Source: an uncultured Rhodospirillaceae bacterium (GTDB taxonomy: Bacteria; Pseudomonadota; Alphaproteobacteria; Rhodospirillales; Magnetospirillaceae). Taken from it: a stretch of DNA of 64,000 bases. Shown here piece by piece: positions 7,066-50,381 of this stretch. How positions within the stretch are numbered: the stretch's first letter is position 1; every line of letters starts with the position of its first letter. The notes beneath the pieces are model-generated. The model saw only the letters and a program-made list of their open reading frames with translations, was not told the DNA's origin and made no database searches. Location of the stretch: the NCBI GenBank assembly GCA_903899885.1, contig CAIULK010000014.1:18362-82361 (forward strand), read 5' to 3'. The position numbers and the translations under genes are program-made.

Positions 7066-8011
7066 TCTGGATCCGTATGAATATTCGGCCGCCGCCCAGG
7101 ACACTCTGTCCGAGGCGGGAACGCTGGAGGGGATGCGCCTGGACCGCGCCGGGCTGCTGGAACGGATCGGCGACTACGACGCGCTGATCATGCGCTTCGC
7201 CCACCGGATGGATTCCGAGATTCTGGGCCGCGCGACACGGCTGAAGGTGATCGGCACCAACGCCACCGGGGTCGATCATATCGACGAGGCGGCGGCGGCC
7301 CAACGGAATATCGCCTTGGTCTGCCTGCGCGGCGAGACCGCCTTCCTGCAAGACGTTTCAGCGACCGCCGAACACACCTGGGGCCTTTTGCTGGCCCTCG
7401 TCCGCAATCTGGTTCCGGCCACCCGCTCGGTGCAATCGGGGGTCTGGAGCCGCGAGCTGTTCCTGGGCGGCGAGTTAGCGGGCAAGCGGCTGGGCATCAT
7501 CGGCCATGGCCGTTTGGGCCGGATGGTCGCGAAATTCGGCCTGGCCTTCGGGATGAACGTGCGGGTCTTCGACACCGCCCCGGTCGCGGTCGAGGCCCCG
7601 GTACAGGCGGCGGCTAGCCTGGAGGATCTGATCGCCGGATCCCACGTGCTGTCGATGCATGCCTCGTTGACCGAAAGCAGCCGCGACATGCTGACCCTGG
7701 AGCGGTTGTCGCTGTTGCCCAAGGGGGCCTTGCTGATCAACACGGCGCGCGGGGTCTTGATCGACGAGACGGCGGTGCTGACCTTGCTGGACAGCGGCCA
7801 TCTGGGCGGGGCGGCGCTGGACGTGCTGCACAACGAACTGGCGCCCGGTTTCCCCGCCCAAAGCGCCCTCGTCGCGGCGACCGCGCGTCACCCCAATCTG
7901 ATCATCACCCCCCATATCGGCGGGGCGACGCGGGAATCCTGGGCCAAGACCGAATTGTTCATCGCCCGCAAGGTCCGCGACGTTTTGATGAAGGGGATGG
8001 AGCGTGCGTAA
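7049..8011 (+). CDS. D-isomer-specific 2-hydroxyacid dehydrogenase (phosphoglycerate-dehydrogenase-like)
   Basis: The NAD-binding fold 'LGIIGHGRLGRMVAKF', plus 'LINTARG' and the catalytic-His region 'IITPHIGGAT', are present. Confidence 0.85.
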   Translation: MARILNLDPYEYSAAAQDTLSEAGTLEGMRLDRAGLLERIGDYDALIMRFAHRMDSEILGRATRLKVIGTNATGVDHIDEAAAAQRNIALVCLRGETAFLQDVSATAEHTWGLLLALVRNLVPATRSVQSGVWSRELFLGGELAGKRLGIIGHGRLGRMVAKFGLAFGMNVRVFDTAPVAVEAPVQAAASLEDLIAGSHVLSMHASLTESSRDMLTLERLSLLPKGALLINTARGVLIDETAVLTLLDSGHLGGAALDVLHNELAPGFPAQSALVAATARHPNLIITPHIGGATRESWAKTELFIARKVRDVLMKGMERA

Positions 8012-9005
8012 CCGCATCGTCTTGTTCGCGTTGTTCTGGATGATCGGCCTGTCCCTGGGCTATCCGACCCTGAACCGCTACGCGCCGGGCGAGACCTCGT
8101 CGGTCTCGGACGCCCGCTATTACGCCGACATCGTCGAACGCGGCCCGGAGGCCGTCGGCGATATCGGTCATTGGCGCTACCGGGCGCTGGTGCCCGCCTT
8201 GGCCCGTCCAGTCTTCACGCTGATCAAGGGGCATATCGGCAGCTGGGAACCGCGCTACGGCGCGCTGCTGGTGGTCAACGCCGCCTTTTGCGCCGGGGCG
8301 GCGCTGATCGTCCTGGATTTGGGCGCCCTGGCCGGAGCCGGAACGGCAACCGCGCTGATCGCGGCCCTGCTGCTGCTGGGCAGTTTCAACACGCCCAATT
8401 TCTATCTGTCGGGACTGGTCGATTCCTCGGAATTGTTCGTGCTGACGGCGGCCTTCTGGGCATTGGCCTCGGGACGATTCGCGCTTTTGCCGGTGATCGG
8501 CGTGCTCGGCGGCGTGGCCAAGGAAAGTACCGTGCCCTTCATGGCGGCCCTAACCGGGGGCTGGTTCCTGGTCGAACTTCTGAGGCGCCGTCCATTCCTG
8601 CGCGGCTCGGTGATCGCCGTGGCGAGCGTGGGACTGGGGCTGGCCACGGTGCTGGCGGTGCGCCACCTCATCGGCGGGCAGGCCAATGCCCTTGCTGGCG
8701 TATCCGGAGCGCCCTTGGATCGTCCGCTGTCCTCGATCCTCCACGATATCCTGGCGGTGCCGTTGGGGCGCTCGTTTCTGTATTCCTTCGCCGGGATCCT
8801 GCCGTTCAGCCTGTTCAGCTTGAAGCGGCTGCCCGCACCCTGGTTGGGCGCGTTGGCCAGCGCCTTGCTGGCGGCCCTGGTTCTCGCCGGGTGGGCGGGA
8901 CTGGGCGATAATGCCGGCCGACCGCTTTTCTCGACCACCGGGGCGATTCTGGTTGTCGCGGCGGCCCTAACCCTGACCCGTTGGCTGAAGGACGAGGCGA
9001 GGTGA
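8004..9005 (+). CDS. Polytopic membrane protein, short GT-C-like
   Basis: There are about 9 hydrophobic segments. The first-loop motif 'SDARYYADIVE' resembles the ArnT/PMT 'DE-x-RYA' loop. Confidence 0.5.
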   Translation: MRNRIVLFALFWMIGLSLGYPTLNRYAPGETSSVSDARYYADIVERGPEAVGDIGHWRYRALVPALARPVFTLIKGHIGSWEPRYGALLVVNAAFCAGAALIVLDLGALAGAGTATALIAALLLLGSFNTPNFYLSGLVDSSELFVLTAAFWALASGRFALLPVIGVLGGVAKESTVPFMAALTGGWFLVELLRRRPFLRGSVIAVASVGLGLATVLAVRHLIGGQANALAGVSGAPLDRPLSSILHDILAVPLGRSFLYSFAGILPFSLFSLKRLPAPWLGALASALLAALVLAGWAGLGDNAGRPLFSTTGAILVVAAALTLTRWLKDEAR

Positions 9006-9106
9006 CCGGCCGGGCGGCGGCGGCCCTGTGGGTGGCGGCGGTGCTTGCCCTTTATCTGGCTCAGTTCGGCGATGTTCTCGCCCGTCTGTCGGGTTGGACG
9101 CGATGA
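9002..9106 (+). CDS. Candidate 34-codon single-helix membrane peptide bridging two genes
   Basis: The GTG at 9002 overlaps the upstream stop (GTGA) and the TGA at 9104 overlaps the downstream ATG (ATGA). It translates to VTGRAAAALWVAAVLALYLAQFGDVLARLSGWTR. Open frames this short are common in GC-rich DNA. Confidence 0.3.
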   Translation: MTGRAAAALWVAAVLALYLAQFGDVLARLSGWTR

Positions 9107-10977
9107 GCGGAATCATGACCGCGCTGCTGATGGTCTTGTCCTCGGCGGGTTGGGGAACGCTGCTTTTGCGATTAACCGGGGCCGCGTCGATCACCACCCC
9201 AGCCGAACGGTTTGGATGGTCGTTCACGCTGGGGATGGGGGTGCTCGGTTGGCTGGGATTTTGGACGGCGGCGCTGTTCGGGGTATCGGCCGCGACGTTG
9301 TGGGCGCCGGTCGTGATCGGACTGGCCGGACTGGCGGTATTGGCGCGGGGGCCGCTGCGCCCGCCCCGTGATCCTTGGCTGTGGGCGCTGGGTGCGCTGG
9401 CGTTGACGGCGTTGGTCCTCGACGGCGCGTCGGCGCTGGTGCCGCCGGTTGATGGCGACAGCATGGCCTATCACTTCGCGCTGCCCAAGGCGTGGCTGCG
9501 AAGCGGACATCTCGATTTCGTGCCGCAAGCGGTCGAGGCGGCGGTGCCCCTGCTACTGCACGTCACCTATCTACAGGCGCTGGGTTTGGGCGGCGAAACC
9601 GGGCTGACCCTGTGGTGCGGACTGAACGCCTGGTTCCTGCCGCTGGCGGTGGCCGTCACCGGGATGCGGTACCTGCCGCCCCGCTGGGCTTTCGGCGTGG
9701 CCTTGCTGATCAAGCTGTTACCCGCCGTCGTCTACGGCTCTCCCGCCGGTCAGGTCGAGGTGCGGCTGGCCGCCTTCTTTTTCGTCGCGGTGTTCGCCGC
9801 CGCGCGGGCCCGGCGATCACAGGCGGCGGGCCCGGCGGCGCTGGCCGGACTGGCCGCCGGTCTGTGCATGGCGGTGAAATATTCCGGTTTGGTGGCCCCG
9901 GCGGCATGCGGCCTGCTGATGCTGGCCCCCGGCGCTTGGTTCCGCCGCGCGGTGGCGTTCGGTCTTCTGGCGCTGTTGGCGGGTGGTCAATGGTACGGCT
10001 GGAACGCGCTGCATACCGGCGACCCCTTGTTCCCGATGCTGTGGGGCCATCTGCCCTACCGGCCCGAAACCCATTGGGACGGGGCGATGGCCGAGGTGTT
10101 CAAGGGCTATCTCGCGATGGAACACGGTGTTCCGGCGACGTTCGGCTGGTTTCTGGCCTATCCCTTTCAGGCGACCTTCGACGGGTTGCCCGCCTTCGAA
10201 TCCGGACGGACCGGATTCGGCCCCTACGGCGTGCTGATCCTGCCCTTCGCCCTGATCGGCGCCTGGAAGGCCCGGCGGCACTGGCGCGATTCGGATTTGG
10301 GCTGGGTGCTGGCGGCCTGCGTCCTGGGATACGCCTTATGGTTCTTCGGCGGGTCCTCGCAGCGGGTTCGGCATTTCCTACCCTATTTCGTGCCCGCCGT
10401 GATCGCCCTGACGGCGGCGGCACGCCCCATTGCCCGGCCGGCGCCGGCGATCGCCTTGGGGCTGACCCTACTGATTCAGTTGGGCGGACTGGCCGTGTTC
10501 GCCCAGCAAAACGTGGTGTGGCTGCTAACCAGCCGCGACCGCGATGCCTATCTGTCGGCCAATCTGTCGTCCTGGCCGGTGGCGCGCTGGCTGAACGGCC
10601 ATCTCGGGCCGCACGACACGGTGCTGATCACCTTGCGCGAGATCAATTACTTGATCGACCCGCCGACCTTTCTGGCGATGCCGAACTATGAAGCGGTCAT
10701 TCCCTTGCCGCCCGGACCCGACGCGGCGCAAAATCTGGCCCGGTTGCGCGACCAGGGGATCACCCATCTGGTGGTCAACGGCGTGACACCGGGCCAAGCG
10801 GCGGACGGCGACATGGCGCGATTGGCCGGGCCCTTGCTGAACGCGGGCTGCCTGCGCCAAATCGGCGCCGTCGCCACGCCCGGTCTGTTAAGATCGCGGA
10901 CCCTGGGGCTTCGCGCCGAGGGTGAAGCACTGCATTATGTTTATGCCGTCGGCGGGCCGGACTGCCGTTTGCCGTGA
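9103..10977 (+). CDS. GT-C fold membrane glycosyltransferase (ArnT/PMT_2-like)
   Basis: There are more than 10 TM segments, an acidic first-loop motif 'PPVDGDSMAYHFALPKAW' and a C-terminal soluble domain. The GTG at 9028 is an alternative start. Confidence 0.65.
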   Translation: MSGIMTALLMVLSSAGWGTLLLRLTGAASITTPAERFGWSFTLGMGVLGWLGFWTAALFGVSAATLWAPVVIGLAGLAVLARGPLRPPRDPWLWALGALALTALVLDGASALVPPVDGDSMAYHFALPKAWLRSGHLDFVPQAVEAAVPLLLHVTYLQALGLGGETGLTLWCGLNAWFLPLAVAVTGMRYLPPRWAFGVALLIKLLPAVVYGSPAGQVEVRLAAFFFVAVFAAARARRSQAAGPAALAGLAAGLCMAVKYSGLVAPAACGLLMLAPGAWFRRAVAFGLLALLAGGQWYGWNALHTGDPLFPMLWGHLPYRPETHWDGAMAEVFKGYLAMEHGVPATFGWFLAYPFQATFDGLPAFESGRTGFGPYGVLILPFALIGAWKARRHWRDSDLGWVLAACVLGYALWFFGGSSQRVRHFLPYFVPAVIALTAAARPIARPAPAIALGLTLLIQLGGLAVFAQQNVVWLLTSRDRDAYLSANLSSWPVARWLNGHLGPHDTVLITLREINYLIDPPTFLAMPNYEAVIPLPPGPDAAQNLARLRDQGITHLVVNGVTPGQAADGDMARLAGPLLNAGCLRQIGAVATPGLLRSRTLGLRAEGEALHYVYAVGGPDCRLP

Positions 10978-12319: not shown

Positions 12320-13702
12320 ATGGGCGAGCGGTTTTCCGGAGATGACATGGTGATCGCGCGTTGGTCCTTTAGGCTGTATCCGGCTTGCCTTGCCGCCAAC
12401 TTCATTCTGTTCCTGAATGGTCTTGCCGGAATCGGCGGATTGCAGGTTTTGCGGGCCGAAGGCCTGCTTGCCCTGGTGCTGACCTCTGTGGCGGCATGGC
12501 GCACCGGCGATCCCCGCGCCCTGCTGACACCCGCCCTGCCGCTTGCCGCCGTCGCCGACCTGTTCGTGCTGACCCTGCCGGGTTATCCGGCCAAGTTCGG
12601 CGCGCTGGGGGTCCGGTACGCCGATGCCATGGCGGCGGACGGACTGTTGGCCGGGCGCATCCTGGCCTGTTTTTGCGCCGCCGCCCTGACGGCAAGCCTG
12701 TTCGTCAGCTTCCGGTGGGCACGCCCGCCGGGCCGGATCCGCACCTCGCCCGGGTTGGCGCTCCCCATCGGCCTGACCGCCGCCGCGGTGATTTTGGCGG
12801 CGATCTACGGCGTGGGCTATACCAGTGAGCACGACTTCCTCACCCCGCTTCTGGGAGCGGTGTTGGCCGGCAACATCTATCAGGCCGTGCCGCCGCTTTT
12901 GTCGCTGATCATGGCCTTCCTCGCTCTTCAAGTGCCGGGCGCGCCGCGCGTGCTGCCGCTGCTGGTGGCGGTGGCGGCGGCCCTGGTGGCGGCGCTGGTC
13001 GCGACGTCATTCATCCGCACCGCGCTGATGGCGACCGCCGCCGTCCTGGTCTTGCTTTTTTTGGTGCCGGGCCGCCTGGACCGCCGCATCCTCGTCATTG
13101 GCGCCGTGGCGATGCTGCTGACCGGCATCGCGGGGGTTCTCGCCGTTCACAAGCGGCGCATCGGCTTCGAGGGTGATATGACCGCACTGGCGGCGAGAGC
13201 CGTCACGGATAAGGTGGGCGAACGTTTCACCGTAACCTTCAGTTGCCTTTCCCAGGGGTTGGCGAGAACCCTGAACGCGCCGCCGCGTCGCACGCCGGTC
13301 TATTTTTTCTCGGGCCTTGTGCCGAGGGTGTTGTGGCCGGACAAACCGGCCCTTTCATGGGGCGATTTCTATACCGTGGCCTATTGCGACGTGCCGATTC
13401 TCGACCCCGCCCATCCGGGCTCGATGTCGGTGACGCTGCTGGGCGAACCGCTGATCGAAGCGGGATGGCCCGGATTTTTTGCCGCCGGCGTGGCGTGGCT
13501 GGCACTGGTGCTCGGCTTCACCCGGCTCTGCATGAAATTGGGGGCGCCCGGAATGGGCTGGATGGCGGCGATGATTCCTTGGCTGGCCGATTTCGACCAG
13601 TCGTTTACGATGTATTGCGCGCTCGGCGTGAAAACGGCACTCATCATGGCGCCGTTCATAGCGGTTTGGTGGTGGTGGAATGGACGCTCTCAAGGCGCCT
13701 GA
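12320..13702 (+). CDS. Polytopic membrane protein; candidate Wzy-type polymerase/ligase (assigned by context only)
   Basis: There are at least 9 hydrophobic segments and no soluble catalytic motif. It lies between the tailoring and GT genes. The start is uncertain. Confidence 0.4.
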   Translation: MGERFSGDDMVIARWSFRLYPACLAANFILFLNGLAGIGGLQVLRAEGLLALVLTSVAAWRTGDPRALLTPALPLAAVADLFVLTLPGYPAKFGALGVRYADAMAADGLLAGRILACFCAAALTASLFVSFRWARPPGRIRTSPGLALPIGLTAAAVILAAIYGVGYTSEHDFLTPLLGAVLAGNIYQAVPPLLSLIMAFLALQVPGAPRVLPLLVAVAAALVAALVATSFIRTALMATAAVLVLLFLVPGRLDRRILVIGAVAMLLTGIAGVLAVHKRRIGFEGDMTALAARAVTDKVGERFTVTFSCLSQGLARTLNAPPRRTPVYFFSGLVPRVLWPDKPALSWGDFYTVAYCDVPILDPAHPGSMSVTLLGEPLIEAGWPGFFAAGVAWLALVLGFTRLCMKLGAPGMGWMAAMIPWLADFDQSFTMYCALGVKTALIMAPFIAVWWWWNGRSQGA

Positions 13703-14798
13703 CGGAAAGATCCGGGTGCTGATCAATGCGCTGCACTCGAAATCCGGGGGCGGCATGACCTATCTCAGCAATGTCGTTCCCGCCTTGGCGGCGGAGGGCG
13801 GCATCGAGCTGCATGTCGCCCTGCACGAGAACCAGCTGAACCGCTACGAGTGGTTGGTGGACCATGCCAACCTGCATGTCTTCGACTTTCCCGACCGCAT
13901 GGCGACGACGCTGTTGTGGGAGCAGTTCGCGCTGCCGGTGGTGGCACGCATGATGCGGGCCGACGTGGTCTATTCCCCCGCCAATTTCGGGCCGCTGCTG
14001 TTGCGCAACGGCGTCGTCCTGCTCGCCAATTCCCTGGCCGTGGCGGCGATGGAGGTTCGTCTCGGCAAGATCTTGTATTGGGCGGCGCTGACCGTGATGA
14101 CGGCGCTGTCGGTGATCGCGGCGCGGCGGGTGGCGGGGGTATCCCATTACGCGGTCGATGGCGTGCTGCGCGGGCCCTTGCGGCTGTTGCGGCGCAAGAG
14201 CGACGTGATCCATCTGGGGGTCGCGCCGCAATTCTCGCCCGCTCCGGTCGTCCGCGGGAGCAACCTTTTGGCGGTGGGCGACATCTATATCCAGAAAAAC
14301 TATCACACGCTGCTGCGGTCGTTCGCGCGGTTGGCCGAACGCCATCCGGACCTGACCCTCGACATCGCCGGGCGGGAGGTGGACAGCCATTACGCCGCCG
14401 GTCTGCGCCGGCTCGTCGCCGATCTGGGACTGCAGGAGCGGGTTTCATTCCTGGGATACGCGACGCCCGAGCAGTTGTGCGAGCGCTACCGGCGTTGCCG
14501 GGTGTTCGTCTTTCCGTCCACGGTGGAAACCTTCGGCATTCCCCTGATCGAGGCCATGGCCTGCGGCGCGCCCATCGCCGGATCCGACCGGGCGGCCATG
14601 CGCGAGGTGGCGGCGGACAACATGGCCTATTTCGATCCCGAGGACGTGGATTCGATGGCCGGGGTGATCGATGCCCTGCTGCACGACGAAGCCCGCCGCG
14701 CGGATCTGTCCCAAAGGGCCGTTGAACGGGCCGCGTTATTCTCGTGGCGGCATCACGCCGAACGGATCGCCGCAGTTCTTCAGCTGGCGGCACGCTGA
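13680..14798 (+). CDS. Glycosyltransferase, GT-B fold, family 4 type
   Basis: It carries the C-terminal motif 'VFVFPSTVETFGIPLIEAMACGAPIAGSD'. Confidence 0.85.
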   Translation: MDALKAPDGKIRVLINALHSKSGGGMTYLSNVVPALAAEGGIELHVALHENQLNRYEWLVDHANLHVFDFPDRMATTLLWEQFALPVVARMMRADVVYSPANFGPLLLRNGVVLLANSLAVAAMEVRLGKILYWAALTVMTALSVIAARRVAGVSHYAVDGVLRGPLRLLRRKSDVIHLGVAPQFSPAPVVRGSNLLAVGDIYIQKNYHTLLRSFARLAERHPDLTLDIAGREVDSHYAAGLRRLVADLGLQERVSFLGYATPEQLCERYRRCRVFVFPSTVETFGIPLIEAMACGAPIAGSDRAAMREVAADNMAYFDPEDVDSMAGVIDALLHDEARRADLSQRAVERAALFSWRHHAERIAAVLQLAAR

Positions 14799-14801
14799 TT
14801 C

Positions 14802-15998
14802 ATGAGCCGGGGATCGGTCCTGCTGGTGACGCTGCCGCCCTTCCGGGGCGGGGTTCCCGCGAAGGCGGCACTGCTGGCCCGCCACCTGCGCGAGCGGGGA
14901 TGGGACGTGCATGTGGCGTATTACGCCACCCTTGCCGATCATCCCGAACTGGTCGTTCCGTCCTGGCGGCTGCCGTCGGGGGCGCGGCCCGCCCGCCTCG
15001 ACGCGACCTGCTGGGATGATTTCCCCAGCCACGCCATCGGCTGCCGTTTTCCCGAACTGGAGGCGCCCTATACCATCCCCTCGCCGTCATGGCGGCGGTT
15101 GTTCGCGGGGTTCGACCGTCATATCGCGGTCGGGGGCACGCCGTTGATCTCCAACCTGCTGGTGGGCTGCGGCATCCGCCATCTTTTGTGGTGCGCCGCT
15201 CCCTTATCCGAGGACCGCCGGGCGCGGGAAGACGCGATGCCGGCGCCGCGCCGGATGCTCGACCGCGCGCTGATCCGGCCATGGCTGCGGCGCCAGGAAC
15301 GGCGGGTTCTGACCTCGCCTCTGTGCCGGGTGGCGGGCGTCAGCCGTTATACCTGCCGGACGTTGGCGGCGCTGGGCGCCGCCGAACCCGCGTGGCTGCC
15401 GATTCCCACCGATTCCGGACGGTTCGCGCCGCCGCTTCGGCCTGCCGCCGTTGGAACCATCGGTTTCGCCGGGCGTCTGGGTGATCCCCGCAAGCGGGTG
15501 GAGCTGCTGCTGCACGCGACGGCGCGGCTAATCGAGCAGGGCGTTCCAGCGCGGCTGCGCCTCGCCGGCGACGCGCCCGAGGAGCTAAAGCGGCATGCCG
15601 GACAGCTGGGTTTGGAGGGCGTGGTGGAATTCCTGGGCCACGTTCGGCCCGAGGATCTGCCCGCCTTCTATCAAGGCCTGGACCTGTTTGCCCTGCCGTC
15701 CAGCCAGGAGGGATTGGGGATCGTCGGCGTCGAGGCGATCGCCTCGGGCGTGCCGGTGGTGACGGCAACGCGGGGAAGCGGTCCCGACGATTACGTGATC
15801 GATGGCGTGACCGGCCGTTTCGTCGATCCCACGGCCGAATCCCTGGCCGACGAACTGGCGGCACTGATCGCCGACCCCGCCGCCCGTGCCGCGATGTCAG
15901 CGGCGGCGCGCGCCCTCGCGGTTGAACGCTATGGATTCCCGGCGTTTCACCAAGGGCTGGCGGCGGTCTGGGAACAGGTCTGGGGGGACCGGCCGTGA
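14802..15998 (+). CDS. Glycosyltransferase, GT-B fold, family 4 type
   Basis: It carries the motif 'DLFALPSSQEGLGIVGVEAIASGVPVVTA'. Confidence 0.85.
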   Translation: MSRGSVLLVTLPPFRGGVPAKAALLARHLRERGWDVHVAYYATLADHPELVVPSWRLPSGARPARLDATCWDDFPSHAIGCRFPELEAPYTIPSPSWRRLFAGFDRHIAVGGTPLISNLLVGCGIRHLLWCAAPLSEDRRAREDAMPAPRRMLDRALIRPWLRRQERRVLTSPLCRVAGVSRYTCRTLAALGAAEPAWLPIPTDSGRFAPPLRPAAVGTIGFAGRLGDPRKRVELLLHATARLIEQGVPARLRLAGDAPEELKRHAGQLGLEGVVEFLGHVRPEDLPAFYQGLDLFALPSSQEGLGIVGVEAIASGVPVVTATRGSGPDDYVIDGVTGRFVDPTAESLADELAALIADPAARAAMSAAARALAVERYGFPAFHQGLAAVWEQVWGDRP

Positions 15999-17098
15999 TC
16001 CGCCTGCTCTATGTGGTCAGCCACCCGATTCAGTATCAGGCGCCGCTGTTGCGGTTGATCGCCGCCCAGCCCGACATCCGTCTGAAGGTGCTGTTCCGGC
16101 GCATGCCCGACGGAGAAATCGATCCGGGTTTCGGCGTGCCGGTGCGCTGGGATGTTCCGCTGCTGGACGGCTACAACCACGCCCCGCTGGATTTCGCCGA
16201 TTTGAGCCGGGAGCTTGACGCCACCGACGCGGTCTGGCTGCACGGCTGGCAGGGAACGGCGATGAAACGCGTGCTTCTGGCCGCCCGCCCGCGGGGCCTG
16301 CCGGTACTGATGCGCGGCGAGAACTGGCTGGGCGCGATGCCCGAGGCGGGCTGGCGCGGCCGAGCCAAGCGGATCTATCTGCGCGCCCTATTCGCCCTGT
16401 GCGCCGGCTTCCTGGCGGTGGGCCGCGAAAACGCACGCTATTACGCCCGTCTGGGCGTGCCGCCCGCGCGGATCTTTCCGATGCCCTATGCGGTCGACAA
16501 CGGTTTTTTCGCTCGCGCGGCCACCGAATCCGATCCCGCCGCTTTGCGGGCCGCGCTTGGCTTGCCGGAGGGGCGGCCGATCGTGCTTTACGCGGGCAAG
16601 CTGGTGCGCCGCAAACATCCGCACACGTTGCTGAACGCTTGGCGCCGGGCATTCCCCGAGGAGGCCCGCCCATTATTGCTGTTTGTCGGCGACGGCGCGA
16701 TGCGGCCGGAGCTGGAGGCCGGGGCCGAATCCGGCGTCCATTTCCTCGGCTTTCGCAATCAGACCGAACTGCCCGCCCTTTACGCCCTGGCCGACGTTTT
16801 CGTGCTGGCGGCCGAAGCCGAGGCGTGGGGGTTGGCGATCAACGAGGCGATGGCCTGCGGCACGGCGGTGATCGCGGGCGACGGCTGCGGCGCCGCCCAT
16901 GATCTGGTCGATCCATCCGTCGGCCGGCTGGTGCCGTCCGGCGATATCGACGCGCTGGCCGATGCCCTGCGCGAGGTGCTGCCGAGGGCCGCGGAACTGG
17001 GGGCGGCGGCGGCCCGCCGGATCGCCGAGTGGGATTTCGCCGCCGATCTTCGCGGCCTGCGCGCCGCGCTATCGTGCGTGGCCGGGGGGCGGGGATGA
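15995..17098 (+). CDS. Glycosyltransferase, GT-B fold, family 4 type
   Basis: It carries the motif 'VFVLAAEAEAWGLAINEAMACGTAVIAGD'. There is a GTGA overlap with the upstream gene. Confidence 0.85.
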   Translation: MIRLLYVVSHPIQYQAPLLRLIAAQPDIRLKVLFRRMPDGEIDPGFGVPVRWDVPLLDGYNHAPLDFADLSRELDATDAVWLHGWQGTAMKRVLLAARPRGLPVLMRGENWLGAMPEAGWRGRAKRIYLRALFALCAGFLAVGRENARYYARLGVPPARIFPMPYAVDNGFFARAATESDPAALRAALGLPEGRPIVLYAGKLVRRKHPHTLLNAWRRAFPEEARPLLLFVGDGAMRPELEAGAESGVHFLGFRNQTELPALYALADVFVLAAEAEAWGLAINEAMACGTAVIAGDGCGAAHDLVDPSVGRLVPSGDIDALADALREVLPRAAELGAAAARRIAEWDFAADLRGLRAALSCVAGGRG

Positions 17099-18144
17099 CG
17101 GCGCCGCTCTCCATCTTGTTCGTGGCCGAGGCGGTGACCGGTTCGCGGTCGGCGCAACGGCTGAACGCGCTGCGCGGCCTGGGGCACCGCGTCGTCTTCG
17201 TGCCGACCACCCCGCCGGGCTTTTGTTGCGAGGATTCACCCAGCCTGGCCTATCGCGTCAGCTATCGGCTGCGGCTGCCCCTCGACCGCGCCGGGGTGAA
17301 CGCGGCACTGAACGGGATCGACGCGTCCGCGTTCGACGTCGTCCTTCTCGACAACGCCGCGATGATCCGCCGGACGGCCCTTATCGGCCTGAAACGGCGC
17401 AATCCCCGGCTGCGTCTGGTGTGGTTCTCGGAAGACGACCTGATGAATCCCCGCCATCGCAGCCGCTGGCTGGAAGCGGCGATTCCCCTGTTCGACCTGT
17501 GGGTGACCACCAAATCCTTCAACGCGGATCCGAACGAATTGCCGCGTCTTGGGGCCAAGCGGATCCTGTTCGTGAACAACTCCTTCGATCCCGATCTGCA
17601 TCGTCCGGTGAGCGTGGACGAGTCCGAGCGCCAAGCCTTCAGCGCCGATGTCAGCTTCGTCGGCACCTTCGAAGCACCCCGCGCCGCCAGCCTGCTGCAT
17701 CTCGCCCGCCAGGGAATTGCCTGCCGGGTGTGGGGCAACGGTTGGGGCGGGATGATCGGTCTGCACCCAAACCTTGTCGTCCGTAACAGGCCGGTTTATG
17801 GTCCGGATTATCCGCGGGTTCTGGCGGCCAGCGCGGTGAATCTCTGTTTCCTGCGCCATTTCAACCGCGACCGCCAAACCACCCGCTCGGTCGAGATTCC
17901 GGCGTGCGGCGCGTTCATGCTGCATGAACGGTCGGAGGAGATGATGGCGTTGCTGCGTGATGGGGTCGAGGCGGCCTATTTTTCGGACGATACCGAGCTG
18001 ACCGCTCAATGCCGCCGTTGGCTGGCCGATCCCGGCACCCGTTCGGCCGCCGCCGCCGCTGGCCGGGAACGGATCCGGGCGCTGGGACTGTCTCATGCGG
18101 AAACGATGGCGCGCGTTCTCGACGCGGCGGGGTGCCCTTCATGA
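17095..18144 (+). CDS. CgeB-like / Glyco_trans_1_2-type glycosyltransferase
   Basis: The motif 'TTRSVEIPACGAFMLHERSEEMMALL' is typical of the CgeB-like family. There is an ATGA overlap upstream. Confidence 0.65.
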   Translation: MTAPLSILFVAEAVTGSRSAQRLNALRGLGHRVVFVPTTPPGFCCEDSPSLAYRVSYRLRLPLDRAGVNAALNGIDASAFDVVLLDNAAMIRRTALIGLKRRNPRLRLVWFSEDDLMNPRHRSRWLEAAIPLFDLWVTTKSFNADPNELPRLGAKRILFVNNSFDPDLHRPVSVDESERQAFSADVSFVGTFEAPRAASLLHLARQGIACRVWGNGWGGMIGLHPNLVVRNRPVYGPDYPRVLAASAVNLCFLRHFNRDRQTTRSVEIPACGAFMLHERSEEMMALLRDGVEAAYFSDDTELTAQCRRWLADPGTRSAAAAAGRERIRALGLSHAETMARVLDAAGCPS

Positions 18145-40328: not shown

Positions 40329-42101
40329 ATGGCGACCACGTCGTCCGTCCGCAAAGCGGCATCCTTGTGCGTGGGCGCGCTGGGCGCGCTGGGGTTGGTT
40401 CTGCTCTGGGCGGTGCCGTTTTCCGTGCTGGCGGCGCTCGCCGATTCCCTGGCGGTGACCGGCCATTCCACTCTGTTCACCCCGGAATTGTTCGGCCATT
40501 TGCGCTCCGGCACGGCCCCGCTGTGCGCGGCGGCCCTGATCCTGGGCGCGGCCGGACTGGCCCTCGGCGCCCGGATCGATCCGTTCCTATCCGCCCTCGC
40601 CGCCGATCTGCGGCGAATGCTGGCCGACGGTGTAATCTCGTTCCGAAACAGGCTGCTGTCGGGACCCGATCGTTGGGGGATCGCCGCCGTGATCCTGACC
40701 GCGCTGGTCTTGCGGCTGTCGGTGCTTGGCCAGCCGATCCGAAATGATGAGGCGGTCAGCTATGTGGAGATCGCGGCGCGCTCGCTGCGCACGGTCCTCA
40801 TGGATCCGTGGAGCAAGTATCACGCCCTGAACAACATTCTGGTCTTCGTCTCCACCCGTCTGTTGGGCGATGCCGAGTGGGCGATCCGGCTTCCGGTGTT
40901 CCTGGCGGGAATGGCGGTGGTCGTTCTTACCATCTGGCTTGGGGCCAGCCGCTTCTCGCCGAGGACCGGGCTGGTCGGCGGCACGCTGGTGGGGGTGGCG
41001 TGGCCGATGGTGGAATATTCCGCCAATGCCCGTGGGTACATGTTGGGAACGGCCTTCATGCTGGCCTGCGCCCAGATGCTGCATTACGCCCGGGAACGCG
41101 ACAATCGGGCGGCGTGGATCGGGGGGGCCCTGGCGGCGGCCGTGTCGATTTTCAGCGTTCCCACCATGGTCGTTCCGCTGTTGGGCGTTGCACTTTGGCT
41201 GATCGGACTGACGGCGATCGAACGCAAGCCGTCCTTCGGCCGGCTGCTGCGGCGCGCGGTTCCAGCCGCGTTCATCGCGGCCGCCGCGACGCTGATCTTG
41301 TATTTTCCCTACTGGGTCATCGAAGGCCCGCGCAGCTTGTTCGTCACCCCGTCCATGTTGCTGCCCTCGCCCGACGCGACGTTCTTCACGGCCTGGTCCG
41401 AAATGCTGGGTGCCTTTCGGCTGATATGCGATTTCGCGCTCTCCACGCCCGTCCTGGCGGGAGCGTGCGTCTTGGCGCTGATCGGCATCATCACCGCACC
41501 GGAGGCGGCGGCTCTGTTCGCCGGACATCTGATCGCGGCGACCGCCTTTTTGTTTCTCACGCATTTCGGCCCCATTGTGGCGCGGATCTACATTCCCTTC
41601 TTTCCGTTCTTCGCCCTGCTGGCCGGCCGCGGCGTTTCGCGGCTGGAGCGGGTGTCGCATCGATCGACACCGGTCCTCGCGCTCTTGGTTCTGATGGCGG
41701 CGGGTGCCGCCGGGTGGAACAGTCTGGACCTTCCCGAGCGCCTTCAACAGGACCCGATCGGGGCCGTGCGGGACGCGCGCTGCCGGGCCGCGGAGATTCT
41801 GGACCGCCTGGAACCTGGAGACGGTGTCGTCGGAACTGGGCTGAACGCGCCGCTGATCTACGATCTGATCCGGGAGGGGAGAAAACGGGGCCGCCTCATG
41901 GTTCACGGCACCGCCCCGCTTCCCGAAACGCAGGATTACGGCATGGTCCAGGAGTGTCCAGCCGCCACATGCGCCGCCCAGCCTCGCGGCTATATCTTCG
42001 TGACGTCGAACAATTCGGATACCGTGCCGCCGCTTTTGGCCCAACTTCCGATCCGGCTGGTCCTGCCGTTCACTCACTGCGCCAAGGGGATCGTCCGGTG
42101 A
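40329..42101 (+). CDS. GT-C fold membrane glycosyltransferase (family 39/PMT_2-like)
   Basis: The first-loop motif is 'GQPIRNDEAVSYVEIA'. There are about 12 TM segments and a soluble C-terminal domain. Confidence 0.7.
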   Translation: MATTSSVRKAASLCVGALGALGLVLLWAVPFSVLAALADSLAVTGHSTLFTPELFGHLRSGTAPLCAAALILGAAGLALGARIDPFLSALAADLRRMLADGVISFRNRLLSGPDRWGIAAVILTALVLRLSVLGQPIRNDEAVSYVEIAARSLRTVLMDPWSKYHALNNILVFVSTRLLGDAEWAIRLPVFLAGMAVVVLTIWLGASRFSPRTGLVGGTLVGVAWPMVEYSANARGYMLGTAFMLACAQMLHYARERDNRAAWIGGALAAAVSIFSVPTMVVPLLGVALWLIGLTAIERKPSFGRLLRRAVPAAFIAAAATLILYFPYWVIEGPRSLFVTPSMLLPSPDATFFTAWSEMLGAFRLICDFALSTPVLAGACVLALIGIITAPEAAALFAGHLIAATAFLFLTHFGPIVARIYIPFFPFFALLAGRGVSRLERVSHRSTPVLALLVLMAAGAAGWNSLDLPERLQQDPIGAVRDARCRAAEILDRLEPGDGVVGTGLNAPLIYDLIREGRKRGRLMVHGTAPLPETQDYGMVQECPAATCAAQPRGYIFVTSNNSDTVPPLLAQLPIRLVLPFTHCAKGIVR

Positions 42102-44310: not shown

Positions 44311-44327
44311 CTTTCCTATCCGTTGCC

Positions 44328-45721: not shown

Positions 45722-45748
45722 GAAAAGCAAATCCCCCCCGGCGGGATT
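45722..45748 (-). terminator. Candidate intrinsic terminator after the AsnB-like gene
   Basis: On the minus strand the sequence reads AATCCC-GCCGGGG-GGGATT followed by TGCTTTTCC. The hairpin overlaps the stop codon. Confidence 0.35.
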
Positions 45749-47561
45749 ATTCCCTCCCCCTAATCGGGGGCATGTTCTGCCCCTTCCCGGCCGATATTGT
45801 TCCGTCCTTGCCCGAAAACGCCGCATGAACCATCCGCGCCCAGCCGCGTAAATCACGCCCGCCCGCGATCCATTGCGAAACGGGGGTGAAAAAGCCGGTT
45901 TTGCGCCGCGTCCGCATCTCCTCGGGGACAAGGGCGGCGGCGCACGCGGCCATGTCGCTTTTGGAAGGCGGGCGAGGCCCGGCCAGCATCGGTGCCAAGG
46001 TCCGATACAAGACGGAATCGACCAGCGGCACCCGGATCTCCAGGGAGTGGCTCATTCCGGCCCAGTCCGCGTCTCGTAATAGCTGATTGCGCATGTAGAA
46101 GCTGGTTTCGAGCCGGGTCACGGCGAGCCGGCCCGAAGGCAAGCCGGACACCGCTTTGGTCAAACGTTCGCGCATCGCCAACCGCGCCCAACCGGTCCGG
46201 ACAAGATCGGCGTCCAGAACGCCGGGCAGTTCCCACGGCATCATCAGACCGCGCCGCAATAGATAGGCGTCGCCGGTACGGGTGCCCAATTCCAGGAGCC
46301 CAGCCATCTTGGGCGACGCGAAGCGCCCGATCCATCCGGCGGTCACCATCCGCAATCCCCGTCCCAGCGCGGGCACGCGCCCGAACGGCCTGAGCATCCG
46401 CGCAAGACGGGGCACCTGACGGAAGGTGTCGTAACCGGCGAACAGTTCATCGCCGCCCAGCCCGGACAGCACCGCCTTCAGTCCCGTCCGGGCGGCGGCT
46501 TGCGATACGAACCATGTGTTGACGCCGTCGATGCTGGGTTGATCCATCGCGGCCAAGATATCGTTTCGAGCGGCGGCGAAATCAGCGGCGGCGATTGTGG
46601 TGGTGACATGCTCCGAGCCGATCCGCCGCGCCATGGCCTCGGCCAGCGGAGCCTCGTCGCAAGGCCCGCCGCGAAATTCGTCGAAGGCCAGGGTGATGGT
46701 CCTGGGCGGACGACCGGCCAAGGCGCCGATGGTGGCGGAATCCAGACCGCCCGATAGGAACAGCCCCACCGGCACGTCCGCCGTCAAATGACGGGCGACG
46801 CTGTCGGCCAAGGCCGCGCGCAGACGGTCCGGATCGAACGGCTGGGGCGCCGCCGCCGCCTCGACCAGCAGCGCGCCGAGATCGAAGAAACACTCCTCGC
46901 GGCGGGTTCCATCCGCGCCGATCCACAGCGTCGAGCCCGGCGGCAGCGCGGTGATGCCGCGATACAGCGTGAACGGCTCGGCGACATGGCCTAACAGGAA
47001 GAACGAGACATGCCCGGCGGGCTCGGGCGCGGTATCGACGGCGCCGCCCGCCAGCAGCGCCTTGACCTGCGACGCCACCCGCAGCGTCCGCCCGTCATCG
47101 GCGAGATAAAGCGGCTTGATGCCGAAAGGATCGCGGGCCAGCAACAGCCCCCGCCGCTCACCATCCCACAGCGCGAAGGCGAACATTCCGCGCAGACGGC
47201 CGACCATGGCGCTGCCATGCCGACGATACAGCGCGAGGATTACCTCGGTATCGCTTTGCGAGCGAAAGGGTATTCCGTCCTGCTCCAACTCTTGGCGCAG
47301 CTCGGCGAAGTTGTAGATCTCGCCGTTGAAGACCACGACATGTCTTCCGTCGGCACTTGCCATGGGTTGGGCGCCGAGCACGCTGGTATCGATGATCGAT
47401 AGCCGCCGATGGGCGAGCCCCACCCGCCCGTGATCGAGAAGAAGGCTACCGGCGCCATCGGGCCCGCGCGGGCGCATGGCGTCGCGGACCGTATCCAATT
47501 CGCCGGGGCTGACGGGCGGGGCATCCGGTCGGTAAGCGAAGATCGCGGCCAATCCGCACAT
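45747..47561 (-). CDS. Asparagine synthase (glutamine-hydrolysing) family amidotransferase, second copy
   Basis: It has the nucleophile 'MCGLAAIF' and the PP-loop 'LFLSGGLDSA'. Confidence 0.9.
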   Translation of the reverse strand: MCGLAAIFAYRPDAPPVSPGELDTVRDAMRPRGPDGAGSLLLDHGRVGLAHRRLSIIDTSVLGAQPMASADGRHVVVFNGEIYNFAELRQELEQDGIPFRSQSDTEVILALYRRHGSAMVGRLRGMFAFALWDGERRGLLLARDPFGIKPLYLADDGRTLRVASQVKALLAGGAVDTAPEPAGHVSFFLLGHVAEPFTLYRGITALPPGSTLWIGADGTRREECFFDLGALLVEAAAAPQPFDPDRLRAALADSVARHLTADVPVGLFLSGGLDSATIGALAGRPPRTITLAFDEFRGGPCDEAPLAEAMARRIGSEHVTTTIAAADFAAARNDILAAMDQPSIDGVNTWFVSQAAARTGLKAVLSGLGGDELFAGYDTFRQVPRLARMLRPFGRVPALGRGLRMVTAGWIGRFASPKMAGLLELGTRTGDAYLLRRGLMMPWELPGVLDADLVRTGWARLAMRERLTKAVSGLPSGRLAVTRLETSFYMRNQLLRDADWAGMSHSLEIRVPLVDSVLYRTLAPMLAGPRPPSKSDMAACAAALVPEEMRTRRKTGFFTPVSQWIAGGRDLRGWARMVHAAFSGKDGTISAGKGQNMPPIRGRE

Positions 47562-48244: not shown

Positions 48245-48451
48245 TTACATGGCCGGCTTCGGCTTGTTCCACGAGCAATTCGCCTTCGAGGCGCGCGGGT
48301 CGCCATAGGTGCCGTCGGCGTTGGCTTGCTGGGTGAAGGAAACCGACCCGTCAGGCATGCACACCGGATCGAGGAACGAGCCTTGAGGTTCGGCCCGGCC
48401 GGAGCAGGCCGCGAGAAGCAGGGCAAAACCCAGCGCGGTGACGATTTTCAT
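48245..48451 (-). CDS. Small lipoprotein (68 aa)
   Basis: It has the lipobox 'LLAAC' and a strong RBS (GGGAGA) 8 nt upstream. Confidence 0.6.
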   Translation of the reverse strand: MKIVTALGFALLLAACSGRAEPQGSFLDPVCMPDGSVSFTQQANADGTYGDPRASKANCSWNKPKPAM

Positions 48452-48560
48452 GAGTCAATCTCCCTGACAGAAATGAAGCTTACGAGTTGTTAATTCTGCC
48501 AGAGCGGCGGAATTTGTCCAGAGTGGACTCCGCCACCGCTAGCCGCCGGACCTCATCCGC

Positions 48561-50381
48561 TCAATATTTGAATTGGGCTGCCCGCTCGAAACCGGTGAAC
48601 GGCCACGTTGCAAGCGTCGTCCAGCCATCCGGACCGCGCGCCAGCAAACTGGCCGCTCGCTCCTTGGGCGGAAATCCCAAGGCTTGGGCGACCGCGGGCG
48701 AAGACGACAGCACAAAGGCGTATGGTACCGCCGGATTGGCCAGAAGAAGCGCGACCGAGGCGGGTGACGCGAAGGCCGAAATGCCGGGCGCCGGGTGATA
48801 CCGAACCCCCAGATTCCATTTAAGGAAGTTGTCCATGAAGCCGGATCCCTCGGGATCGACCATCATCACCCTCGAACCGGGCGGCAAAAGCGCCGTCAGA
48901 TCCGGGGTCAGCGACCGCACGAAATTCTTCACCGGGTGCCAGTCGAAGCGCAGAACCGGCACCGCCGCCACCGGCACCGCCACCACGAGACCGATCGCCA
49001 AGATACCGAAAGCCGCCGTCAGGCGCGCCGACGGCCGCATTTTCAAGCCCGACAGCCATGCCGCAGCAGCCGCCAGTTCGAATCCGCCCAACTCGGTATG
49101 GTATCGCCAGAACGATGCCGCCGAAGAGCTTTCATAGTCGGTGTAGACCGCCAGATAGACCCACAGCAGAAATCCCGAGAAGCCGATCACCGTCACCGCG
49201 AACAACACCGCGAGACGCTCGGCGGGCACAACCCCGCGCGACAGCGCGCGGCCCGCCACACCGGCCAGAATCAACGCCAGCCCGAAATAGCCCCCCTTGT
49301 TTACCACCACCAACCCGATGCTGTGCAGGGTTTGCCCCATCAGGGCCCAATGCCACTGGGCGAAGGCCATCGGATGTTGCTCGCCGCCGCCAATCTCGGC
49401 GACTCGAACCCGCCAAGCCAGCGCCACCAGTCCAGCCGCCGCCGCCGCCAGCAGCAACGGCCCGATCCGGCGTGGCGCCAAGACAAGCGCGCCGGCGCCC
49501 AACAGCAGCAGAAACACCAGATTGGCCTGTTTGATGAGAATCAGGATCGTCGCCGCGGCCGCCAACTGGATGATCAGCCCGATCCCGACGGGCCGTTCCC
49601 CCTCCAGACAGCGGGCGGCCAGCATCGCCGTGAAGGCCAGAGCCACCGCGGTCGCGCAATCGGCGTAATTCGACAAGACCAGCTTGGGCACGAAGGTCGG
49701 CGACAGCAGTGTCGCGAAGGCCAAGCCCAGCGCGGCGGCCCGCCATCCGACCCGTTGGTTCGGCCGAACCAGTGAAATCAGCGCCAGTCCCAAACTGGCC
49801 AATAGCAACATATTGAAGCGGTTGCCGGTGGTATCGGCGATGCCGCCGGCCAGTCGGCTGACGAAGTAGCCGACGAACGCCGTTACATAGGGATAGGCCG
49901 GAAAAACACTGTCCGATGGCGGCAGGCCAACGCCTGGGAAATGGTCGGTCCACAGCAGATAGCGCAAATTCGGCAGCCATTGGGCGAAATCATCGTTTTC
50001 CGAGGGTTGCATCGACAGCGTGACCAGCAGCAACGGCACCAGCAGGATCAATATCCGCCCCGCCCCTGGCGCCAGCAGCGGTTGTTTACGGCGCCACAGC
50101 ACCGCCCCCGCGGCCAATGCGGCCACCGCCACGATAATGGCCAAAACGGTGAACGGAATCCCGGTCAGCCCGCCCACCACGACCAGGAACGACGCCACCA
50201 CGCTCCACCCGACCAGCAAATCGGCCTCGGGCATCGTCCGGGAATCGTTTCCGATGGATCGTAAGACCGCCCCGATGGCCGTAAATCCGCCCACGACCGG
50301 AATCAACGCCAACGCCTGGGCGACCTGAAGCGTCGAGGGAACAAGATCGCGCATGACGGCGGGAGACAGCATCCAGGTCAT
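48561..50381 (-). CDS. Polytopic membrane protein, GT-C-like
   Basis: There are more than 12 TM segments. The acidic loop motif 'MQPSENDDFAQWLPN' is present, and there is a soluble C-terminal domain. Confidence 0.55.
   Translation of the reverse strand: MTWMLSPAVMRDLVPSTLQVAQALALIPVVGGFTAIGAVLRSIGNDSRTMPEADLLVGWSVVASFLVVVGGLTGIPFTVLAIIVAVAALAAGAVLWRRKQPLLAPGAGRILILLVPLLLVTLSMQPSENDDFAQWLPNLRYLLWTDHFPGVGLPPSDSVFPAYPYVTAFVGYFVSRLAGGIADTTGNRFNMLLLASLGLALISLVRPNQRVGWRAAALGLAFATLLSPTFVPKLVLSNYADCATAVALAFTAMLAARCLEGERPVGIGLIIQLAAAATILILIKQANLVFLLLLGAGALVLAPRRIGPLLLAAAAAGLVALAWRVRVAEIGGGEQHPMAFAQWHWALMGQTLHSIGLVVVNKGGYFGLALILAGVAGRALSRGVVPAERLAVLFAVTVIGFSGFLLWVYLAVYTDYESSSAASFWRYHTELGGFELAAAAAWLSGLKMRPSARLTAAFGILAIGLVVAVPVAAVPVLRFDWHPVKNFVRSLTPDLTALLPPGSRVMMVDPEGSGFMDNFLKWNLGVRYHPAPGISAFASPASVALLLANPAVPYAFVLSSSPAVAQALGFPPKERAASLLARGPDGWTTLATWPFTGFERAAQFKY

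Follow-up and report, generated by a model that had tools for sequence, protein, structure and literature searches.

How many enzymes that transfer sugars outside the cytoplasm can be gathered in a single surface-polysaccharide locus, and what would they serve? The question is raised by a contig of an uncultured Rhodospirillaceae bacterium (CAIULK010000014.1, positions 18,362 to 82,361), whose 64,000 nucleotides are here called the window and give all the coordinates below. A sequence-only reading, made without database searches, had proposed for it seven candidate periplasmic glycosyltransferases of the GT-C type (c1 to c7) within about 42 kb, together with genes of the GtrA and GtrB kind. 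The window is best read as containing a mosaic island for the biosynthesis of a surface glycan, about 50 kb long, whose host is an alphaproteobacterium resembling Magnetospirillum; its closest relatives, in Magnetospirillum, Phaeospirillum and Paramagnetospirillum, and a gene for the magnetotaxis protein MtxA assign it to that group. We give a probability of about 0.65 to this island carrying several three-component modules for extracytoplasmic glycosylation, and it is likewise rather probable that at least five of the seven candidates are GT-C transferases using polyprenyl-phosphate sugars in the periplasm; that all seven are has a little less than an even chance. The seven genes are as follows.

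8004..9005, + strand: c1, a 333-residue polytopic protein, candidate small GT-C-like enzyme; first-loop motif 'SDARYYADIVE'
9103..10977, + strand: c2, a PMT_2-type GT-C candidate of 624 residues with a C-terminal soluble region; motif 'VDGDSMAYHF'
19268..20887, + strand: c3, a GT-C-fold membrane protein of 539 residues; first-loop motif 'GGDAGNIASF'
28489..30375, + strand: c4, a candidate GT-C of 628 residues from a rare unannotated family; motif 'NWDEMSAW'
32014..34029, - strand: c5, a candidate PMT_2-type GT-C of 671 residues, whose C-terminal soluble region spans about 275 residues; first-loop motif 'WSDRDLL'
40329..42101, + strand: c6, a PMT_2-family GT-C of 590 residues; motif 'RNDEAVSY'
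48561..50381, - strand: c7, a candidate GT-C of 606 residues, distant paralogue of c4; motif 'SENDDFAQW'

Membrane character, acidic motifs and families of the seven proteins

At a GC content of about 65%, long spurious open reading frames (ORFs) are common in the window, and genes were picked by their third-position GC content (GC3). All seven ORFs proposed earlier are present, and the GC3 frame analysis favours coding for each of them (0.72-0.85). Five (c1, c3, c4, c6 and c7) correspond to publicly recorded gene products with exactly the same boundaries, c5 is on public record with 671 or 672 residues, and the start of c2 at 9103 is backed by homologues aligning from residue 1. Moreover, most of the seven are translationally coupled to biosynthetic neighbours through overlaps of 1-8 bp.

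By Kyte-Doolittle hydropathy all seven proteins are polytopic, with roughly 8-14 hydrophobic segments each. The sequence-only reading had described them as large, which fits all but c1, and as usually ending in a soluble C-terminal domain, which is borne out for six of them (non-membrane regions of about 120-280 residues); c1 has no such region, nor does its family, whose 375 representatives all measure about 330-360 residues. The acidic motifs it had quoted are all found in the translations, and every motif opens a loop of 30-68 residues; the hydrophobic helix leading into this loop comes just after the N-terminus or a short segment rich in K/R. Since K/R residues stand before the preceding helix, the positive-inside rule would put each motif on the extracytoplasmic side, and a periplasmic orientation of the motif loops is predicted on this local charge distribution, in keeping with what had been supposed. 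As for a location in the first loop, this applies to c1, c3 and c5; in c2, c4, c6 and c7, which carry 2-4 extra helices N-terminal of the motif helix, the motif comes after the third or fourth predicted helix. The motif of c3, formerly judged unclear, turned out to be well defined, with D44 (just past helix 1) and D64 invariant in 31 homologues. In the other families for which homologues could be aligned, acidic residues of the motif are also invariant or nearly so: D36 in c1, D119 in c2, D110 and E111 in c4, and D130 in c7.

The protein c3 provides the clearest structural case. None of its 39 homologues has a Pfam domain, and an AlphaFold model built from 31 sequences is of high confidence (pLDDT, the predicted local distance difference test, 92.7; predicted template modelling score, pTM, 0.92), with a secondary structure that agrees with the polytopic hydropathy. 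A Foldseek search of the PDB with this model returned GT-C enzymes in all of the top 14 places, with DPY19 first and STT3A, AftA, PglB, ArnT, AftD, ALG3 and Pmt4 among the rest (probability 0.87-1.00, TMq 0.29-0.49), whereas further down the list the unrelated proteins fall to a probability of about 0.1, a few other GT-C enzymes being interspersed among them. The predicted structure of c3 thus shows a GT-C fold.

Three other candidates are linked to the Pfam family PMT_2 (PF13231, gathering threshold 26.1 bits). The match of c6 lies above that threshold (E 4.4e-7, 30.7 bits). The one of c2 lies below it (E 9.3e-4, 19.9 bits), but 9 of the 10 aligned members of its family, for which 11 metagenomic relatives were recovered, match PMT_2 at E<=1 (best E-value 9.7e-10), and the family keeps D119, Y123, H124 and K259 invariant. 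For c5 the match is again below threshold (E 1.9e-3, 18.9 bits), covering positions 7-158 of the 160 in the profile. In all three proteins the acidic motif is found 20-28 residues ahead of the start of the PMT_2 profile, the spacing in c6 (about 20 residues) being like that in c2 and c5. No PMT_2 match at E<=10 was given by the other polytopic proteins of the window used as a control, which argues that the weak matches do not merely reflect hydrophobic composition. None was obtained for c1, c3, c4 or c7 at that limit either. Altogether, GT-C status is firm for c3 by its modelled structure, for c6 by its gathering score and for c2 by the matches of its family, and probable, on its profile match and the GtrA gene just upstream, for c5. 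Searches with tblastn retrieved no plasmid matches for c2, c5 or c6.

A further link joins c4 and c7: hhalign shows homology of their two families along 550 alignment columns (probability 98.9%, E 3e-17), with 'NWDEMSAW' of c4 aligned to the c7 family consensus 'SEWDEFSQW' and the Asp invariant. The c4 family is rare, with only 6 members among 5.8 billion proteins, none of them with a Pfam match, and D110 and E111 are invariant in it; the 36 homologues of c7 carry neither a Pfam domain nor a PMT_2 match and keep D130 throughout. In a Foldseek search of the PDB, the top 10 matches of the c4 model were STT3 and ArnT, followed by Pmt4, ALG3 and ALG6, at a TM score of about 0.25, which is suggestive and lends weak support to a GT-C fold. 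A comparison of the c2 and c4 families (hhalign E 0.007) also pairs D119 of c2 with D110 of c4. For c4 and c7 a GT-C identity is considered probable, the fold evidence being weak and the evidence from gene context, described below, good.

The smallest protein, c1, is a tentative member of the group. It matches no Pfam family, DUF2079 (PF09852) included, and its 16.5 bits against the NCBIfam model AZOBR_p60025 (NF046093) are below the cut-off of 150. Among 48 relatives, 21 match DUF2079 weakly (best 2.8e-6) and 32 match AZOBR_p60025, named for 'cell surface glycopolymer formation' (best 1.1e-7), while one match to Acyl_transf_3 at E 0.66 is noise. DUF2079 we take to belong to the GT-C clan of Pfam, for which a literature check gave no usable confirmation. 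Within the c1 family Y40 is invariant and D36 nearly so, and a statistically weak alignment of the c1 and c2 families (hhalign E 0.02) pairs D36, Y40 and K173 of c1 with D119, Y123 and K259 of c2.

Two other identities were considered and rejected. None of the seven gave a match to Wzy_C (PF04932), O-antigen polymerase, acyltransferase or transporter families (Pfam E<=10, NCBIfam E<=0.01), and a Wzy or ligase identity was set aside for want of profile support; the earlier count is thus not lowered by any assignment to such families. Recent paralogy was likewise discarded, as an all-against-all BLAST of the seven found no significant similarity and only c4 and c7 are linked, at the profile level.

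Donor-side genes and recurrent modules

If these proteins use lipid-linked sugars, genes for making and moving such donors should be sought around them. The sequence-only reading had listed two GT2 genes and two GtrA units, and profile matches confirmed both GT2 genes, the free GtrA protein and the fusion. These genes, with the other enzymes that enter the modules discussed here, are the following.

21013..21939, + strand: GtrB/ArnC/DPMS-like GT2, candidate polyprenyl-phosphate sugar synthase (Glycos_transf_2, E 1.5e-30)
27440..28492, + strand: GT2-GtrA fusion, candidate donor synthase and putative flippase (Glycos_transf_2, E 5e-11; GtrA_DPMS_TM, E 2.5e-13)
34029..34466, - strand: free GtrA-family protein, putative lipid-linked-sugar flippase (GtrA_DPMS_TM, PF04138, E 7.1e-17)
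34463..35995, - strand: GT-B enzyme of the MJ1255/VC2487 and GT28-C type, upstream of GtrA (Glyco_trans_1_3, E 2e-19; Glyco_tran_28_C, E 8e-9)
23189..25078, + strand: AsnB-like amidotransferase 1 (Asn_synthase, E 9e-77)
45747..47561, - strand: AsnB-like amidotransferase 2, in the c7 operon (Asn_synthase, E 5e-53)
37206..38954, - strand: radical SAM enzyme, similar to B12-dependent ones (Radical_SAM, E 3e-13)

The GT2 protein at 21013-21939 has C-terminal hydrophobic segments at residues 219-283 and aligns over nearly its full length with the NCBIfam models AglJ, PpgS, ArnC and PgfS; its best relatives in the PDB are ArnC (E 2.3e-12, residues 14-261, membrane region included), DPMS and GtrB sll0501. 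In the fusion, the GtrA domain (PF04138) occupies residues 232-345, the GT2 half matches the PpgS (E 6e-26) and AglJ models, and the stop codon overlaps the start of c4 by 4 bp. The free GtrA gene is followed immediately by c5 in one minus-strand operon. The GT-B ORF before it is probably over-extended by about 146 Arg-rich, non-coding-looking codons, with a start near 35557 ('MSRRILFLVNG...'); an operon of GtrA and GT-C genes headed by a GT-B rather than a GT2 gene is unusual.

Members of the c2, c3, c4 and c7 families recur beside GtrB-like GT2 genes in unrelated genomes, from which the use of a lipid-phosphate-linked donor by these proteins is inferred. The association is best documented for c3. 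In the window the GT2 gene starts 126 bp after c3, and among 77 genome loci, spread over Chloroflexota, Planctomycetota, Legionella, Alphaproteobacteria and other groups, 51 have a GtrB-like GT2 gene no more than 3 kb from the c3-family gene, mostly in the same orientation. At the same distance limit, 24 of the 77 loci, from several phyla, have a homologue of AsnB. A module of c3-like, AsnB and GtrB-like GT2 genes is seen, for example, in loci L002 (3908-8961), L003 (10001-15097) and L090 (10001-15106), where the GT2 proteins are 66-77% identical to the one at 21013-21939; such a composition suggests that the sugar donor or the product is amidated, of uronamide type. Other observations on this family are a tandem of two full-length paralogues in a Chloroflexia genome (L078, 6381-11563) and homologues split over two ORFs in three loci (L053, L066 and L067), perhaps by frameshifts.

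The c4 gene belongs to a second recurrent unit. In loci L001 and L091 a GT2-GtrA fusion lies directly upstream of the c4 homologue, again with a 4-bp overlap, and together with a radical SAM gene they make up a self-contained unit of three genes, the two metagenomic settings being unrelated. Identities to the window genes are 72-75% for the radical SAM enzyme, 58-60% for GT2-GtrA and 41-44% for c4. In both loci the radical SAM gene is divergent from the GT2-GtrA and c4-like pair (L001, 7100-8827; L091, 67-1788); in the window it stands 7 kb off, in the c5 operon. The radical SAM enzyme may tailor the lipid-linked donor, which would make a four-component system possible. The most distant relative of c4 (P0006) is placed between two Wzy_C genes, with no GT2-GtrA gene in its contig of 8.8 kb.

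For the remaining families the context is more variable. In Paramagnetospirillum marisnigri the c7-like gene stands among housekeeping genes and has a GT2 gene 65 bp downstream; two other c7-family contexts, of three additional ones examined, are near glycan genes with no adjacent GT2. A c2-like gene has GT2 genes near it in six homologous loci and a c1-like gene directly upstream in two (L081 and L082). Adjacency to a donor gene was not seen for c6, and c1 and c2 have a loose proximity to GT2 genes in other loci only.

How often such genes are gathered together was considered in two ways. The close relatives Magnetospirillum XM-1 and Phaeospirillum GS7 share a gene order of c7-like, c3-like, methyltransferase, AsnB, GT2 and mem460-like genes (mem460 being an eighth membrane protein, described below), in which the c7-like and c3-like genes abut; these are the only two of the seven that are kept together within 10 kb in both, so that conservation of the group as a whole, about which the sequence-only reading had asked, is limited to this pair. 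With profile hidden Markov models for five of the families, five genes were detected in the window, in comparison with one match in 91 and two in 6 of 97 comparison loci, a count that is indicative only, as those loci measure 2-22 kb, were each seeded on one of the families and are shorter than the window. A GT-C density of this kind is unusual for a proteobacterial polysaccharide locus, yet not without precedent: the term 'exceptional' used earlier calls for qualification, as mycobacterial arabinan synthesis also employs several different GT-C enzymes (PMC11127046).

A proposed three-component scheme, its precedents and its rivals

Three-component systems are established for O-antigen glucosylation, and variants of them are still being extended (PMC11127046). 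In the scheme proposed for the island, a membrane-anchored GT2 enzyme (21013-21939, or the GT2 half of 27440-28492) would load one sugar onto polyprenyl phosphate, a GtrA-type protein (the fused domain of 27440-28492 or the free protein of 34029-34466) would then move the donor to the periplasmic face, and six, possibly seven, GT-C enzymes, belonging to at least five families unrelated in sequence, would pass the sugar on to an acceptor in the periplasm, each of them specific for a linkage or a site. As the most economical guess, the acceptor would be the lipid-linked or nascent surface polysaccharide of the same island. The partnership of GT-C enzymes with GtrB and GtrA proteins announced earlier is accordingly graded: it is upheld for the firm members c3, c6 and c2, probable for c4, c7 and c5, and tentative for c1. 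The mechanism itself is already known. What is new is how many GT-C candidates share one locus and how diverse they are, the position of three of their families outside Pfam and NCBIfam, and the recurrent pairing in which a donor synthase is accompanied by a radical SAM enzyme or by an amidotransferase of AsnB type, partners that hint at lipid-linked donors modified before transfer. Bacterial surfaces owe much of their antigenic variety to extracytoplasmic glycosylation by GT-C enzymes, and GT-C families are still emerging, GT136 having been founded only in 2024 (PMC11127046). The island is in this regard a natural test bed, with many GT-C-like enzymes in one locus: if confirmed, they would supply new CAZy-type families and extend the three-component paradigm, and if only the known mechanism applies, the island would be an unusually rich but conventional one.

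The nearest model of organization is the GtrA/GtrB/Gtr(type) system of Shigella and Salmonella, with which the island shares a GT2 synthase with membrane helices, a small GtrA protein and an adjacent polytopic transferase of GT-C type. It differs in having six or seven candidates of at least five unrelated families instead of one transferase, one GtrA domain fused to GT2 and another GtrA following a GT-B gene, and a chromosomal or plasmid-like biosynthesis island instead of a prophage; no sequence similarity of the island candidates to a characterised Gtr transferase was shown. The ArnC/ArnT pair offers other likenesses, as ArnC is the closest solved structure to the GT2 at 21013, ArnT is among the fold matches of c3 and c4, and c6 belongs to the same Pfam family PMT_2, to which c2 is connected through its family and c5 probably. 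On the other hand, no island candidate matches ArnT by sequence in the PDB, and ArnC and ArnT act in a lipid A modification operon rather than a polysaccharide island. In Rhizobium, several PMT_2 paralogues (the galacturonic acid transferases RgtA-D) work with one GT2 donor synthase, RgtE. Unlike either of these systems, the island has no identified pathway genes for 4-amino-4-deoxy-L-arabinose or galacturonic acid.

As regards the number of GT-C enzymes in one pathway, the nearest precedent is mycobacterial arabinan synthesis (EmbA/B/C and AftA-D, with decaprenyl-phosphate arabinose and a candidate small flippase); two of its enzymes, AftA and AftD, also stand among the 14 best PDB matches of the c3 model. 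The mycobacterial GT-C genes are clustered with donor genes. Differences lie in the donor synthases, which use phosphoribosyl pyrophosphate there and are of GT2 type here, in the lack of DprE-like epimerases here, in protein size (Emb and AftD exceed 1000 residues, against 330-670 for the island candidates) and in the host, here a Gram-negative alphaproteobacterium. A last parallel is ORF12 of Citrobacter youngae (GT136), from a pentofuranose three-component system: it is a GT-C enzyme unlike the existing families, recognised by predicted fold and gene context, and more elaborate systems with multiple candidate GT-C enzymes were noted along with it (PMC11127046). The likeness to c3, c4 and c7 concerns this mode of recognition, and the C. 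youngae system relies on a phosphoribosyl-type synthase and a MATE flippase where the island has GT2 and GtrA-type candidates.

Several points weigh against the scheme. Four of the seven proteins (c1, c3, c4 and c7) have no Pfam or NCBIfam assignment, even with Pfam searched to E<=10, and sequence searches of the PDB gave nothing meaningful, either with c5 and c6 alone or with c1, c2, c3, c4 and c7 also as family profiles. Comparisons between family profiles were not significant except for c4 with c7, and forced global hhalign alignments were uninformative. For c5 and c6 no homologues with which to compare their motifs were retrieved (from plasmids, and for c5 also in a metagenome scan). The c4 model, from an alignment of 6 sequences, is of low confidence (pLDDT 49), with TM scores of only about 0.25, and c1 is much smaller than typical GT-C transferases. 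The topology comes from an in-house analysis of hydropathy and the positive-inside rule, not from a trained predictor. On the donor side, two or three synthase candidates face seven transferases, and the gene upstream of GtrA and c5 encodes a GT-B enzyme rather than a GT2. Finally, no Bac_transf, WecA, Poly_export, Wza or Wzc/Wzz-type match was found in any scanned ORF of the window, as the sequence-only reading had also noted, and neither a priming transferase nor an acceptor was identified in it.

Among the alternatives, the one that survives best is that the modules are seroconversion-type units gathered horizontally, which are not all expressed or do not all act on the same glycan, the count thereby overstating the complexity of any single product. 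This is quite possible, albeit held at clearly less than even odds, and is compatible with the three-component scheme rather than opposed to it. ParA and RepA_C genes at the edge of the island and a GC content varying from 0.58 to 0.70 speak for such an accretion, as does the occurrence of the same modules as stand-alone units of two or three genes in unrelated contexts, while in the window partners are scattered (the radical SAM gene at 37206 away from GT2-GtrA and c4, mem460 away from AsnB 2) and relatives keep only two of the seven genes together. Set against this, all seven ORFs are intact and have a host-like GC3, and most of them are coupled in translation to biosynthetic neighbours.

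It is rather unlikely that the count is too high, with one to three of the proteins being something else (polymerase- or ligase-like, or other membrane proteins that serve glycan export or modification) and the true number of GT-C enzymes four to six. The likeliest exception would be c1, with its 333 residues and remote, sub-threshold family similarity, although its D36, Y40 and K173 do align, weakly, with the residues invariant in the c2 family (D119, Y123 and K259). Next would come c4 and c7, which have no profile match, the model of c4 being poor; moreover, the c4 relative P0006 sits between two Wzy_C genes without GT2-GtrA, and two of the three additional c7-family contexts lack an adjacent GT2. 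Yet the invariant 'WDE' motif of both opens a long loop, the top 10 fold matches of the c4 model are all GT-C enzymes, the coupling of GT2-GtrA to c4 is conserved, and even at E<=10 none of the proteins resembles Wzy_C, O-antigen polymerase, acyltransferase or transporter families.

A more ambitious view holds that six or seven GT-C enzymes, two or three of their families new to the classifications, do not just decorate a complex branched surface glycan but assemble a whole branched domain of it in the periplasm, stepwise from polyprenyl-phosphate monosaccharides, side-branch addition being minor and the donors being tailored by the radical SAM and AsnB-type enzymes. Stepwise assembly of this kind, outside the cytoplasm and by Emb, Aft and Mpt enzymes, yields arabinan and lipomannan in mycobacteria. 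Tailoring is proposed because of the two recurrent modules, one of radical SAM, GT2-GtrA and c4-like genes and the other of c3-like, AsnB and GT2 genes. If true, this would make the island a proteobacterial equivalent of these mycobacterial pathways, one whose donor chemistry is new. Seven candidates of at least five families are far above the single GT-C enzyme of classical Gtr systems, and several different GT-C transferases do take part in mycobacterial arabinan synthesis, with a polyprenyl-phosphate monosaccharide as donor (PMC11127046); the failure to find a priming phosphoglycosyltransferase or Wza/Wzc in the window, and the soluble C-terminal domains of six candidates, which could bind glycan, point the same way. 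We nonetheless consider it improbable, for at least 10 cytoplasmic GT-B and GT2 enzymes, a Wzx and a possible polymerase suffice for a conventional Wzx/Wzy repeat unit, the donor synthases number only two or three, and the modules occur singly in other genomes, as befits add-on decoration units.

Least probable of all is protein O-glycosylation, with some of the PMT_2-type enzymes (c2, c5 and c6) acting on periplasmic or surface proteins: the members that gave PMT_2 its name are protein mannosyltransferases, large C-terminal soluble domains could recognise protein acceptors and the top fold match of c3, DPY19, is a protein C-mannosyltransferase, but the PMT_2 family extends to enzymes that modify lipid A and glycans, ArnT among them, c3 matches DPY19, STT3, AftA, PglB and ArnT about equally and thus tells nothing of the acceptor class, all the genes are embedded in polysaccharide-type operons, and no gene for a candidate acceptor protein is evident.

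The rest of the island and its surroundings

The island that surrounds the seven genes is equipped for a conventional surface glycan as well. Its cytoplasmic transferases amount to at least 10 GT-B and GT2 enzymes; by type, there are seven GT4-type genes, two further GT-B-like genes and one GT9. Also present are three methyltransferases and two radical SAM enzymes, as well as a GmhA-like isomerase and a TolC-like protein. Its other features of interest are these.

814-2457: MsbA/PglK-like ABC protein (exporter)
4080-7065, + strand: NeuB, NeuC-like epimerase and cytidylyltransferase, a nonulosonic-acid set
12320..13702, + strand: mem460, an eighth polytopic membrane protein, of 460 residues and unclassified, outside the earlier count (about 10 hydrophobic segments)
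13680..19271, + strand: five cytoplasmic GT-B (GT4-type) genes, a block ending 4 bp inside c3 (Glycos_transf_1 / Glyco_trans_1_4, E 1e-16 to 1e-34)
21899..23188, + strand: Wzx-type flippase (Polysacc_synt_3, E 8.5e-14)
25078-26295, + strand: ORF of 405 residues with a strong GC3 signal and the N-terminus 'MRIVVVNHH...'

The protein mem460 has no Pfam or NCBIfam match. Its homologues adjoin genes that are 59-62% identical to AsnB 2 in two loci (L084, 7897-10970; L093, 6475-8780), whereas mem460 and AsnB 2 are 32 kb apart in the window, and the homologue in the Magnetospirillum XM-1 locus is close to a Wzy_C gene; mem460 is possibly an unrecognised protein of polymerase or ligase type. The nonulosonic-acid set is preceded by a soluble protein of 586 residues without a family (region 2414-7065, + strand), whose sole match is to Epimerase_2 at E 0.015 and which could be an unrecognised sialic-acid-type transferase. 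The ORF of 405 residues, without a Pfam or NCBIfam match, resembles a GT-B glycosyltransferase at its N-terminus and was masked in the list of longest ORFs by a read-through of 923 residues. A protein of 300 residues without a family, with hydrophobic segments at its N- and C-terminal ends, is encoded at 36143-37045 (- strand), between the radical SAM gene and the GT-B, GtrA and c5 genes.

Beside the island, at 50726-53576, are ParA-like and RepA_C genes, with a dip in GC content to 0.58-0.61. The island may be carried by a plasmid or chromid, or be part of an integrated element; a search of the plasmid database PLSDB gave no near-identical DNA. Beyond these genes come a CHAT-TPR protein (55879-59412), a CHASE2 adenylate/guanylate cyclase (59409-61469) and then, at 61499-63860 (- strand), the genes of MtxA (magnetotaxis) and FliD (flagellar cap). 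The presence of NeuB, NeuC-like and cytidylyltransferase genes in the same window as FliD led us to consider flagellin glycosylation as the purpose of the island. Flagellin glycosylation systems of the Maf/FlmG type are not known to use GT-C enzymes. This purpose was set aside because the pathway described is cytoplasmic (PMC7591256) and FliD is distant, 12 kb past the island and on the far side of the ParA and RepA genes.

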